A DNA stretch of 64,000 bases, from positions 11,972 through 75,971 of the forward strand of contig CAVTNH010000007.1 in the NCBI GenBank assembly GCA_963736025.1. Reading direction: 5' to 3'. The notes beneath the pieces were generated by a model. It made no database searches. It was not told the origin of the DNA and worked only from the letters and a program-made list of their open reading frames with translations. The stretch comes from an uncultured Chloroflexia bacterium (GTDB lineage: Bacteria; Chloroflexota; Limnocylindria; Limnocylindrales; CSP1-4). The position numbers and the translations under genes are program-made. Positions 43,821-61,816 of this stretch are shown here, in pieces. Numbering within the stretch: the first letter of the stretch is position 1; each line of letters opens with the position of its first letter.

Positions 43821-43894
43821 CGACCGATGATAGGCGTGTCGTGACGGAGGCGACAGGCAGCGGTCCGTAGTCCGCGGCGCGCTACCATCGCCGC

Positions 43895-43991
43895 GGGAGC
43901 GGTCGGGTCCCGGTGGGTCCCCTGGTCTTCAAAACCAGTGGCGCGGCGCTCGGCGCGGCGCGGTGGGTTCGACTCCCACGCGTTCCCGCCA
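43895..43991 (+). tRNA. selC: tRNA-Sec (anticodon UCA)
   Basis: 6-bp D stem with CGGU loop, CTGGT-CTTCAAA-ACCAG, long variable arm, GTGGG-TTCGACT-CCCAC, 3' GCCA. Confidence 0.95.
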
Positions 43992-59296: not shown

Positions 59297-60166
59297 CTAC
59301 GAGGCGATCCGGCGCACCTCGTAGCCACCGCCCTCGGCCGCCTGGATCTCGTACGCGGGCTGGTCGTAGACCGATGGGCCGCGCACGACGTGGCCGTCCT
59401 CGATCCGGTACCGGGCGCCGTGCCACGGGCACTGCACGCAGCCGTTGACGATCGTGCCCTTGTCCAGTGGCCCGCCGGCGTGGGCGCAGGTGGCGTGGAG
59501 CGCGAAGACCCGTTCGCCCAGCCGGATCACGACGAGGTCGTTGATGCCCGCCTTCATCTTCGTGGGCGTCGCCTCGGCGAGGTCGTCGAGGCTGGCAAGC
59601 GCGCCGAGCTCGAGCTTGATCCACTTCGTGCCGGCCCCGCGGAACGCGTGGCGGCTGACCATGTTGCCGAGGAGGTACACGACGTCTCCGCCGACGAACG
59701 CCCCCGCCGACACCAGCCCGAAGGCGACGATGCCGAGGACGATCGCGACCGTCCGGTCGACCGGGTCGCCCGCCCGGATGACCAGGGAGACGATCAGGAC
59801 CACGAGCGCGATCGTCATGAGCGTCGCGTGGGTGGTCGCGCGCGTCCGGGCGGTGCCGTCCGTGTCGGTGTAGTCCGCCAGCCCCGCCACGGCCGAGAGG
59901 ACCATGAAGAGGATCGTCCCCGCGAGCGCGATGTCGGCGGCCGCCCGTTGGTCGGCCAGGTCGAGGATGACCGCGCCGAGGAGCAGGCCGATCGGGATGT
60001 CCGTCAGTGCCGCGTGGAGCGGATGGCCCAGCCAGCGGCCGTTCAGCAGGTCCTTGATCGGGCGGATCGGTCCGAACAGCGCCGACAGCCAGCGATGGTT
60101 GAAGTCACCGAAGGGGCGCGCCCACCGGTCGTTGATCGCCACGAGCCGCGCGAGCAGATGGGCCAT
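59297..60166 (-). CDS. DUF2231-like membrane domain fused to Rieske 2Fe-2S domain
   Basis: WLGHPLHAALTDIPIG; CAHAGGPL...CPWHG. Confidence 0.88.
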   Translation of the reverse strand: MAHLLARLVAINDRWARPFGDFNHRWLSALFGPIRPIKDLLNGRWLGHPLHAALTDIPIGLLLGAVILDLADQRAAADIALAGTILFMVLSAVAGLADYTDTDGTARTRATTHATLMTIALVVLIVSLVIRAGDPVDRTVAIVLGIVAFGLVSAGAFVGGDVVYLLGNMVSRHAFRGAGTKWIKLELGALASLDDLAEATPTKMKAGINDLVVIRLGERVFALHATCAHAGGPLDKGTIVNGCVQCPWHGARYRIEDGHVVRGPSVYDQPAYEIQAAEGGGYEVRRIAS

Positions 60167-60188
60167 GGATCGGGCACCTCCCGGACGA

Positions 60189-60298
60189 GTATCCACAACC
60201 CGTCCACAACGTCCACAACTTCGGGGATAAGGTCGAGGGCTCCGCCTGCAAGTTCGTGGATAAGCCCGTTGTGGTTCTGGGCCCCCGGACCGTACATT
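60189..60298 (+). promoter_or_regulatory. Cluster of DnaA-box-like repeats plus -10 element
   Basis: GTATCCACA 60189; TCCACAAC at 60192, 60203, 60212; CGGGGATAA 60222; CGTGGATAA 60255; TACATT 60293. Confidence 0.55.
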
Positions 60299-60304
60299 GG
60301 TCTC

Positions 60305-60490
60305 GCCCGAAGGGGCAGGAGTGAACCGCCAGACCGCAGCGAGGAGCGATCCACGCAGCGGCCCCGGGAACCGGGCTCGAGAGTCGCAAGGCTAGCGAGC
60401 GAGGGACCCGGCGGCGACCAGGGACTGCAGCTTGCTGAAGCCCCAGGACCCGCTGAACGCTCGGTGTCCCACCAGTTCCTTCGGGCGCTT
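60305..60490 (+). ncRNA. Candidate ~185-nt structured non-coding RNA (6S-like or novel)
   Basis: Starts 6 nt after TACATT; 5' GCCCGAAGGGG pairs with 3' TTCCTTCGGGC; internal hairpins with GCGA, GCAA and CUUG loops; no credible ORF. Confidence 0.6.
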
Positions 60491-60537
60491 TCGTGCGTCC
60501 CGCAAGCCGGTCCCGCGCATCGGCTAGGCTTCCGCCG

Positions 60538-61816
60538 ATGCCCGACCCCGGTGCCCTGACGGCGCCCTCAGTCCCACCCTCACGCCCGGCCCAGGACTGG
60601 CGCGTCCTCGTCGCGGTCTTCTGGGTCACCTCGATGGTCGAGGGCCTCGGCGTCAGCCAGGTCTTCGCGCTCCTGCCGGCGTACCTGCGCCAGATGGGCG
60701 TCGCCGAAGCCGACCGGCTCGCGTTCATCGGGCTCTTCAGTGCGCTGGTCTTCGTGGTCGGGATGCCGCTCGTCCCGCTGTGGGGCGTCTGGGCCGACAA
60801 GTACAGCCGCAAGGCCGTCATCGTCCGCAGCGCCCTCGTCGAGGCCGTCGTGTTCGCGGGCGTCGCGCTCTCGCAGGAGCCCTGGCAGCTCGCCCTCTCG
60901 ATGCTGCTCATCGGGTTCCAGCTGGGCAACACCGGCGTGATGCTCGCGGGCATCCGCGACGTGACCCCGACGCACCGGCTCGGCACGACGATCGCCGTGT
61001 TCGGGGCGTCCGGTCCGATCGGGTTCGCGGTCGGCCCCATCCTCGCCGGGATCCTGATCGACGCGCTTCGGCTGGCCGCTCGCCGGCGTCTTCTGGCTGT
61101 CGGCTGCGTTCTCGGTGGGGACCGCGCTCCTCGTCGCCTTCGGTTCGAAGGAAGTGCGGCCGGAGGTCGTCCCGACGGGGAGCGTCCTCTCGCTCGCCTT
61201 CGGTGCCGTCCGGGGCGTGCTGATGGACCCGTCCGTTCGCCGGATCTTCGCGATCTTCGGCGTCTCCTACATCGCGACGCAGATGAGCCGGCCGTACATC
61301 CCGATCCTCGTCGAGGGCCTGACCGGCCCGGGCCCCGGGTATGCGTCGGCCGTCGGGCTCGTGATGGGCACGGCCGCGCTCGTCGGCGGCCTCGTGGCGC
61401 CGCTCGGTGGCGTGCTCGGCGATCGCGTCGGGTTCCGCCCCGTCCTGGTGGCGGCGCTCGCGGGCGCGGGCGTCGTCCTGTTGCTCATGCCGTTCGTTGA
61501 GGCGGTCGCCTCACTGGCGTTGTTGGCAGTGGTCCTCGGCACGGCCACGGCGACCGTGAGTGCCATGGTCTTCGGGCTGCTCGCGCTCGAGGCCCCGCCC
61601 GAGCGCCGGTCGGCGACGCTCAACCTCGTCTACCTGCCGCTCTACGCCGCCGGCATCATCGGACCGGCGATCGGGGCCGGTGTCGCGTCGGTCGGCGGCG
61701 CATCGGGGCCGTTCATCGTCGGTGGCGCGATCTTCCTGCTCGGCGCGATCGCGATCGCGGTCCGCCTTCGCTCGACGCGGTCGCGGACGCAGGCACCCAC
61801 CGCGCGGGCTGCCTGA
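60538..61816 (+). CDS. MFS transporter (DHA1-like), frameshift near 61065
   Basis: WGVWADKYSRK, GGVLGDRVGFRP; about 12 TM. Confidence 0.85.

Follow-up and report, generated by a model that had tools for sequence, protein, structure and literature searches.

A structured, stand-alone non-coding RNA gene preceded by DnaA-box-like sites in a Limnocylindrales (Chloroflexota) genome

We analyzed a 64,000-nucleotide stretch of DNA (hereafter, the window; contig CAVTNH010000007.1 of assembly GCA_963736025.1) from an uncultured member of the Limnocylindrales (Chloroflexota), and found that positions 60305-60495 of its forward strand constitute a stand-alone gene that encodes a structured non-coding RNA of ~190 nucleotides (nt). 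The RNA proper, ~185-191 nt long, extends from the inferred start G60305 to the conserved tail GCUUUCGUG, which is also the span matched by the homology models described below. In an alignment of homologues from the same genus, sequence conservation sets in ~90 nt 5' of the RNA and ends abruptly directly 3' of CTTTCGTG. These homologues differ from one another by insertions and deletions of 1-4 nt, which excludes a conserved reading frame. An earlier reading of this DNA made from the letters alone (the sequence-only reading) had proposed an RNA with paired ends and its own promoter at this site, belonging either to a divergent 6S- or Ms1-like group or to a new class of non-coding RNA, and had recommended a comparison with Rfam and a covariation test on homologues. 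When compared with Rfam 15, the locus gave no match at the gathering thresholds, and no match was found at E<=10 across positions 60100-60700. The lack of an Rfam match, together with the finding of a conserved, covarying and single-copy gene whose neighbours differ between genera, supports the second of these proposals, a new class of non-coding RNA. The class also has shorter RNA cassettes with the same end clamp and promoter layout, and within this class-specific set the gene described here is the largest. The promoter array with its conserved DnaA-box-like sites and the presence of at least four shorter paralogues with the same clamp and promoter are new beyond the earlier reading.

To place the RNA among known families, we located the housekeeping RNAs of this lineage. 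The signal recognition particle (SRP) RNA, RNase P RNA and transfer-messenger RNA (tmRNA) each scored above cut-off at other loci in all five genomes searched, including the genome under study (SRP RNA at G000:C9:255258, RNase P RNA at C2:79976, and tmRNA at C12:149565). Identity with any of these three RNAs is thus rejected, in agreement with the earlier impression that their hallmarks were missing from the sequence. We also rejected a Y RNA (YrlA), as the TROVE domain of Rsr (PF05731) was found in none of five genomes, four of which are at least 90% complete, and a Y-RNA-like role for the 190-nt RNA appears unlikely on these grounds. The literature that we searched on DnaA-box-controlled small RNAs, on Ms1 and 6S RNA in Actinobacteria, on Limnocylindria and CSP1-4, and on structured RNAs and 6S RNA in Chloroflexi did not describe this RNA (supplementary candidate lists were outside the scope of this search).

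The RNA folds into a 12-base-pair end clamp that closes a junction with three covarying hairpins, capped by GNRA, GCAA, and CUUG loops. The predicted fold of the sense strand has an energy of -95.3 kcal/mol (z = -2.79), with 2 out of 200 shuffled sequences folding equally well; the antisense strand has z = -1.80, with 11 out of 200 shuffles equally good. The covariation test counted pairs of an RNAalifold-derived structure on a MAFFT alignment (A4) of 64 distinct homologues. In this alignment, 86.4% of cells were paired in the consensus structure, compared to 30.0-49.0% when the 3' partners were slid by one to three columns, and compensatory changes on both sides were present in 43 out of 63 pairs. 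The observed covariation values were reached by none of 500 shuffles on each of five measures. These results indicate that the structure exceeds what chance would produce.

Specifically, the clamp (P1) pairs its 5' arm GCCCGAAGGGGC (60305-60316) with the complementary GTTCCTTCGGGC (60475-60486), which is followed by GCTTTCGTG, just as the earlier reading had described for the ends. The 3' arm GUUCCUUCGGGC and the tail GCUUUCGUG (together 60475-60495) are invariant or nearly so among the 64 sequences and form the inferred terminator and 3' end. Seven of the 12 clamp pairs show no variation at all, and a few wobble changes occur. Two clamp pairs are G-U in 63 and in all 64 of the sequences, respectively, and would read A-C on the other strand, which fixes the coding strand. 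The three hairpins inside the clamp lie on the same forward strand. P2 (60333-60362) carries a GNRA loop (GCGA at ~60346-60350), with both-sided changes in 9 of its 11 pairs and 91.2% of cells paired. In P3 (60364-60411), three purine-rich 2x2 internal loops interrupt a long hairpin capped by a near-invariant C-GCAA-G apex (CGCAAGG, at least 90% conserved), and 13 of its 16 pairs show both-sided changes. P4 (60412-60455) has a CUUG apex in the genus of the window, and GCAA or the 13-nt loop GAGAUCACAUCAAGG in other genera; both-sided changes were found in 9 out of 10 pairs of its apical helix. The capped hairpins listed by the sequence-only reading are all present, namely GGA-GCGA-TCC, AGTC-GCAA-GGCT (apex 60386-60389), and CAG-CTTG-CTG (~60428-60437). 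Its nested pairings fared less well: the letters are there, but ACCG/CGGT is paired in 66.3% of cells and CAGCGG/CCGCTG in only 45.6%. We rejected the latter as a long-range helix, since it competes with the local and far better paired P2.

The long RNA is conserved across its family in the GTDB taxonomy while the genes next to it change. A BLASTN search recovered it at full length and 76-92% identity in 22 of the 24 other genomes of the genus, and in none of 16 genomes of a sister family with genomes of ~1.1 Mb. The genome under study contains one full-length copy. A model built from 22 genus sequences (R1) gave full-length matches of ~185-200 nt in 65 out of 151 genomes of the order and in 18 out of 27 genera; 64 of 108 genomes in the GTDB family f1 had such a match. 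Because R1 missed many family members and all cassettes of family f4, it was replaced by a model built from 64 family-wide sequences (R2). R2 found matches in 38 of 44 sampled f1 genomes and in 10 of 50 f4 genomes (9 of 49 without the unpublished genome G249), where the matches listed comprised only short forms of ~70-115 nt. No R2 match was observed in the other families of the class (0/6 genomes in f2, 0/49 in f3, and 0/1 in f5), nor outside the class in 108 sampled genomes of other Chloroflexota families. A search with the exact pattern of the two ends, with 150-180 nt between them, identified at least 115 loci, almost all of which lie in metagenome-assembled genomes labeled Limnocylindrales, Chloroflexota, or 'uncultured Chloroflexia'. 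Neither the long nor the short end pattern gave a match among viral contigs, which argues that the element is not mobile or viral.

In addition to the full-length copy, we found four more clamp-closed cassettes of ~80-90 nt in the genome under study, with the same clamp, tail, and DnaA-box-type promoter. Two of these are arranged in tandem (C2:442527-442437 and C2:442295-442205), and the others lie at C5:225781-225700 and C10:127501-127585; together, the four cassettes make up loci L215-L217. Their interiors differ and contain repeated CUAGUGAUC, GUUUACAU, or GAUCGCAUCAA motifs. Relatives encode cassettes of ~72, 85-92, 112, 123, and 168 nt. Across the set, the clamp reads GCCCGAAGGGGC ... GGUUCCUUCGGGCGYUUU, and the shorter members span ~70-125 nt. 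All four elements of the design, i.e. the DnaA-box-like sites, the promoter, the clamp GCCCGAAGGGGC/GGUUCCUUCGGGC, and a U-containing tail, are present in the window, and the same four are common to the four other loci of this genome and to homologues in f1 and f4. A further shared feature is the loop GAGAU(C/U)(G/A)CAUCAAG, which occurs in short cassettes of f1 and f4 and also at the P4 apex of the long form in several genera, at the place where the genus of the window has CUUG. In one f4 cassette of 114 nt (L212; G179:C45:13635-13748, minus strand), the clamp has one additional U-A pair, inserted on both arms. This cassette also has a GGGGATAA box at about -49 and contains the loop motif GAGAUUGCAUCAAG, so that the design must be older than the split between f1 and f4. 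The short cassette on C10 (L217; G000:C10:125000-130100) lies between the genes for MoaA and purine nucleoside phosphorylase (PNP), with ThyX next, and in two other genera the long form follows MoaA (L075) or is followed by PNP (L080, L083). Nucleotide metabolism is represented by several of the genes next to cassettes, namely those for thymidine kinase, NUDIX, PNP, pyrophosphatase, and ThyX.

Upstream of the RNA, the promoter (60269-60298, forward strand) consists of a -35-like TTGTGG (60269-60274), an 18-nt spacer, and the -10 element TACATT (60293-60298), which is separated by 6 nt from G60305. The earlier reading had pointed to this spacing and had likened it to that of tRNA-Sec, and both observations hold: the tRNA-Sec gene (65.5 bits; window 43883-43987) has TACCAT at 43883-43888 and, after 6 nt, the tRNA start at 43895. 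In 22 loci of the genus and in 30 loci of other genera, the distance to the conserved 5' end is fixed both for the TTG element and for a hexamer of the form (T/C)A-N3-T, which reads TANNNT in most genera. Two forward DnaA-box-like sites precede this promoter. The proximal site TTCGTGGATAAG (60253-60264; about -52 to -41) abuts the -35 element and is kept in all 22 genus loci, with GTGGAGAA as the one variant, and GTGGAYAA is found at about -49 in all 30 other-genus homologues with sufficient upstream DNA. The distal site TTCGGGGATAA (60220-60230; about -85 to -75) contains TCGGGGATAA, which is identical in all 22 genus loci and preceded by a variable base; most of the 30 loci from other genera have a forward GTGGACAA or GGGGATAA box near -82. 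Further upstream, we read three inverted sites on the minus strand, TATCCACAA (60190-60198) and two copies of CGTCCACAA (60201-60209 and 60210-60218). These conform to (T/C)(A/G)TCCACAA and share their type with the CGTCCAC boxes that lie in the dnaA-dnaN spacer of this genome. Three inverted sites at these exact positions were found only in the window and in its closest relative (L002), and in other genera a single inverted TTGTCCAC box or a pair of them lies between about -100 and -115; the tandem inverted boxes thus look like a recent local expansion of the array.

The promoter array matches, at the level of motif sequence, the predicted DnaA boxes of the dnaA-dnaN origin region of the same genome. 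The motif GTGGATAA occurs only 11 times in this 3.27-Mb genome: 4 of these sites precede clamp-closed RNA cassettes, 1 falls within the dnaA-dnaN spacer (as TGTGGATAA), and 1 lies before a parA-like gene. The spacer itself (G000:C12:134490-134958) is oriC-like, with TGTGGATAA, CGTGGAAAA, an inverted TGTGGACATCCACG, at least four CGTCCAC-type boxes, and an A+T-rich stretch, and two more boxes lie directly before the dnaA start. Other GTGGATAA sites have promoter-like contexts (G000:C12:67671, C2:882318, C1:17278, C2:855967, and C10:230162); at one of them three boxes stand in tandem, and another is followed by a GC-rich structured leader and then an ATG. Judging from their sequence context, it is possible that these sites mark further members of a DnaA regulon.

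Based on these findings, we propose that the locus is a trans-acting structured RNA gene whose synthesis is tied to DnaA and which is the largest of a set of clamp-closed cassettes, a reading that we consider about evenly balanced between right and wrong. Transcription would proceed from G60305 to the U-run after the clamp, with the clamp serving at once as end protection and as terminator stem. Occupancy by DnaA of the boxes near -49 and -82 and of the inverted boxes upstream would set the synthesis of the RNA, and the cassettes would together form an RNA branch of the DnaA regulon. The long form would work in trans by virtue of its three-dimensional shape, either binding or sequestering a protein or else assembling into a particle, and not by antisense pairing. 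We regard such shape-based action as the most likely mode suggested by the sequences, because nearly all positions of the long form that are at least 90% conserved sit in helices or tetraloops and not in open, seed-like stretches. A more far-reaching version, in which the RNAs are switched by DnaA and the 190-nt member replaces 6S RNA at RNA polymerase or a central machine, or else forms an RNA-only particle driven by its GNRA loops, seems to us quite improbable.

Several points weigh against the proposal. We infer DnaA binding of the boxes from motif identity and position only, and a different DNA-binding protein could be the user of these sites. GTGGAYAA is not enriched in the window as a whole (2 sites compared to 0.79 expected, with at least 2 in 18 out of 100 shuffles). 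A simple scan for E. coli-type consensus sequences across 60100-60700 returned no promoters and no terminators, so that the call of an own promoter, already made by the sequence-only reading, stands on the conserved -35/-10 geometry and not on a consensus match. With respect to the fold, P1 is so nearly invariant that it shows scarcely any covariation of its own inside f1, and one clamp position is A-C mismatched in 4 of the 64 sequences. The presence of short and long forms beside the MoaA and PNP genes blurs positional orthology, and with it the assignment of homologues to 'orthologue' families. Expression data also bear on the ends of the RNA. We used Logan contigs of four RNA runs from four studies (six listed runs contain part of the stretch), and contigs from soil RNA runs cover the RNA at 99-100% identity. 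Two contigs from run X16 start at 60308 and two from run X17 stop at 60492, close to the inferred ends. Other contigs (X2, X16, X19, and X17), at a depth of ~2-8, bridge both of them, crossing the start at 60199-60423, 60225-60337, and 60272-60422 and the end at 60394-60556 and 60463-60551. Finally, the preference for protein binding over base pairing is argued from the placement of conservation, and the conserved 13-nt open loop at the P4 apex in other genera could be a pairing seed.

This last point leads to a rival explanation, in which the RNA is a trans-acting base-pairing small RNA that uses the clamp and hairpins as a scaffold and pairs with mRNAs through a loop or junction segment. A paralogous family with common expression signals and variable interiors would fit this explanation, as would the open loop GAGAU(C/U)(G/A)CAUCAAG where it occurs. 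In the genus of the window, however, each of the three hairpins of the long form ends in a stable tetraloop. In the genome under study, moreover, only 2 sites are exactly complementary to the loop motif, one of which is the opposite strand of the cassette itself. Allowing up to 2 mismatches gives 185 sites, which are dominated by coding strings of Leu-Asp-Ala-Ile-type codons and show no pattern at gene starts, and the search of this genome yielded no predictable targets. We therefore consider base pairing unlikely as the mode of action. The CiaR-dependent csRNAs of streptococci and the Qrr small RNAs are paralogous, short, base-pairing RNAs with open seeds and a shared promoter and terminator. 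They resemble the cassettes in having several genes per genome, common regulator sites, a common promoter geometry, and a terminal stem, with interiors that differ. They are unlike them in that the long form described here has a compact, branched fold and that the common sites are DnaA-box-like. A second rival is that the RNA is a functional equivalent of 6S or Ms1 RNA, i.e. an abundant RNA that binds RNA polymerase (holoenzyme or core) and tunes transcription capacity by means of a different fold. 6S RNA itself associates with the holoenzyme and serves as a template for product RNA. The RNA resembles 6S RNA (RF00013) in several respects: it is of similar length (191 nt, compared to ~180-200 nt), has paired 5' and 3' ends (here the 12-base-pair clamp), is single-copy and conserved, and has its own, strong-looking promoter. 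Moreover, 6S RNA is the only universal housekeeping RNA that is unaccounted for once SRP RNA, RNase P RNA, and tmRNA have been located elsewhere. Against this, the covariation supports three hairpins on a junction, whereas 6S RNA is a rod with a closing stem, a central bubble, and a terminal stem, and the clamp is common to paralogues of ~80-90 nt along with the promoter, which is not predicted for a 6S closing stem and makes the clamp a generic module. The locus has no RF00013 match at E<=10, and RF00013 had no match at E<=1 anywhere in the genome under study (78.6% complete). Nor did any of 41 genomes of the order have a match, whereas in a sample from the phylum RF00013 was found in 30 out of 121 genomes but in none of the 12 that belong to the Limnocylindria families f1 and f4; the RF00013 model finds 6S RNA in only 4-5 of 14 control genomes, however, so its silence is weak evidence. 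According to the excerpts of the Ms1 studies that we drew on (PMC4191392, PMC9130861), Ms1 is an actinobacterial RNA that forms a long hairpin with a bubble and has been put forward as a stand-in for 6S RNA where a clade has no canonical 6S RNA. In the same excerpts its gene adjoins a HAD-IB hydrolase gene (PMC9130861) and is origin-proximal and transcribed towards the origin (PMC4191392). As a lineage-specific structured small RNA that general homology searches miss, Ms1 as excerpted there (PMC4191392, PMC9130861) is similar to the RNA described here. The two differ in fold (branched here) and in host (Chloroflexota here), at least as far as these excerpts portray Ms1, and they also differ in position and synteny. 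The RNA gene and dnaA are 1.52 Mb apart in a 4.15-Mb contig (G115; 37%) and 1.43 Mb apart in a 3.62-Mb contig (G142; 39%); at 37-39% of the chromosome from dnaA, the RNA gene is not origin-proximal, in contrast to Ms1 as excerpted. No member of the HAD family was present among the 53 and 33 flanking open reading frames (ORFs) that we scanned against Pfam, and the neighbours in the window encode Rieske and MFS proteins. Membership in the 6S or Ms1 family, as suggested by the sequence-only reading, is therefore not supported, in view of the branched fold, the missing RF00013 match, the missing HAD synteny, and the short paralogues with the same clamp. A 6S-like function of the 190-nt RNA is possible, and we judge full functional equivalence distinctly unlikely.

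We also considered that the element might act in cis, as a riboswitch or attenuator in which the clamp terminates transcription and an alternative fold permits read-through into the downstream gene. In the window, the RNA gene is flanked upstream by a gene for a Rieske/DUF2231 membrane protein (59297-60166, minus strand) and downstream by an MFS transporter gene on the forward strand, with its ATG at 60538. Of the 22 loci in the genus, 19 have the Rieske gene upstream and 18 have the MFS gene downstream. In other genera, neither neighbour is kept at any of 31 homologous loci, where Pfam identified contexts such as thymidine kinase/RNA/NUDIX, DnaB_C-like ATPase/RNA/pyrophosphatase, RDD/RNA/PNP, HlyD/RNA/VWA, and MoaA/RNA. 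Of the 115 loci scanned, 82 have their nearest confident downstream ORF in the same orientation as the RNA and 10 have it in the opposite orientation, and no such ORF was callable in 23. This co-orientation at 82 of 92 callable loci (21 of 27 clusters of downstream ORFs) would favor a leader, as would a downstream ORF that begins within ~30-130 nt in several contexts, the several nucleotide-metabolism neighbours (NUDIX, PNP, pyrophosphatase, and thymidine kinase), and a local GCCC-GAAG-GGGC hairpin, read from the sequence, that the 5' arm may form instead of the clamp. The 92 callable ORFs, however, fall into 27 unrelated clusters that include MFS, NUDIX, pyrophosphatase, PNP, CorA, LigT, PBP, and MscL, which rules out a riboswitch for one pathway, and 6 of these clusters have the opposite orientation. 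Co-orientation likewise prevails for the upstream neighbour (69 versus 30), so that the orientation bias looks like a general strand bias. Within the genus, the spacer between RNA and MFS gene varies from 38 to ~450 nt and is unconserved. The MFS gene also has what we read as its own -10 element (TAGGCT, 60525-60530, forward strand), located 7 nt before the ATG, so that its mRNA would be leaderless. The motif around it, GCTAGGCTTCCGC(G/C)GATGCCCGA, recurs in L001, L002, L003, L005, and L009 despite spacers of differing length, and this conserved promoter speaks against the RNA being a leader of the MFS gene. Without a coherent downstream gene set, and with opposite-strand clusters and a variable, unconserved spacer, we rejected membership of the RNA among riboswitches and cis-leaders, and a cis-acting role of any kind is highly unlikely in our view. 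Even less plausible, to the point of being scarcely credible, is that the locus is a DNA element and not an RNA, such as a cluster of boxes that titrates DnaA or a miniature inverted-repeat element. The 12-nt terminal inverted repeats, the dispersed copies with differing interiors, and the clusters of DnaA-box-like sites are what such an element might have. Yet the compensatory changes preserve three internal hairpins, the G-U pairs are strand-specific, the boxes and the promoter lie outside the inverted repeats and are conserved along with them, and the copies are syntenic within the genus at 76-92% identity, with no viral-contig matches.

The proposed trans-acting, DnaA-tied RNA can be set beside two further groups of known RNAs. 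The raiA motif, OLE, ROOL, and GOLLD are orphan 'ornate' RNAs of bacteria, i.e. free-standing, covarying, multi-helix non-coding RNAs with GNRA loops for which no partner is known. The RNA described here is likewise free-standing, strongly covarying, and multi-helix, with conserved GNRA loops. It differs in being much smaller than OLE, ROOL, and GOLLD and in belonging to a paralogous cassette family with a common clamp and a DnaA-box promoter, and those ornate RNAs that are held in Rfam gave no match. CcnA of Caulobacter, as presented in an excerpt of its description, is an origin-linked cell-cycle non-coding RNA (PMC8959179). The likeness to CcnA, to the extent of that excerpt, is that expression of a non-coding RNA is tied to the replication or cell-cycle machinery, which in our case we infer from the boxes only. 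The differences from CcnA as excerpted are the phylum, the absence of any sequence relation, and the position of our RNA away from the origin.

If our reading is correct, an abundant uncultured soil lineage contains an undescribed and strongly structured RNA family, and the layout of its promoter suggests that non-coding RNAs are regulated by DnaA, the initiator of replication. To our knowledge, there are very few precedents for the regulation of non-coding RNAs by DnaA. The RNA would also be a concrete candidate for the 6S niche in a class in which no canonical 6S RNA has been detected, and if the version with a DnaA regulon and a 6S replacement were true, global gene expression would be coupled directly to the state of replication initiation. 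The clamp and promoter design of the paralogues is a natural modular RNA expression cassette that is open to study and reuse. Even if our reading fails, the alignment, structure, and distribution define a family that is suitable for RNA databases.

As a side observation on the downstream neighbour, the MFS transporter spans two reading frames (~60538-61100 and 61115-61816), each half of which matches MFS_1, possibly reflecting a frameshift or an assembly error.

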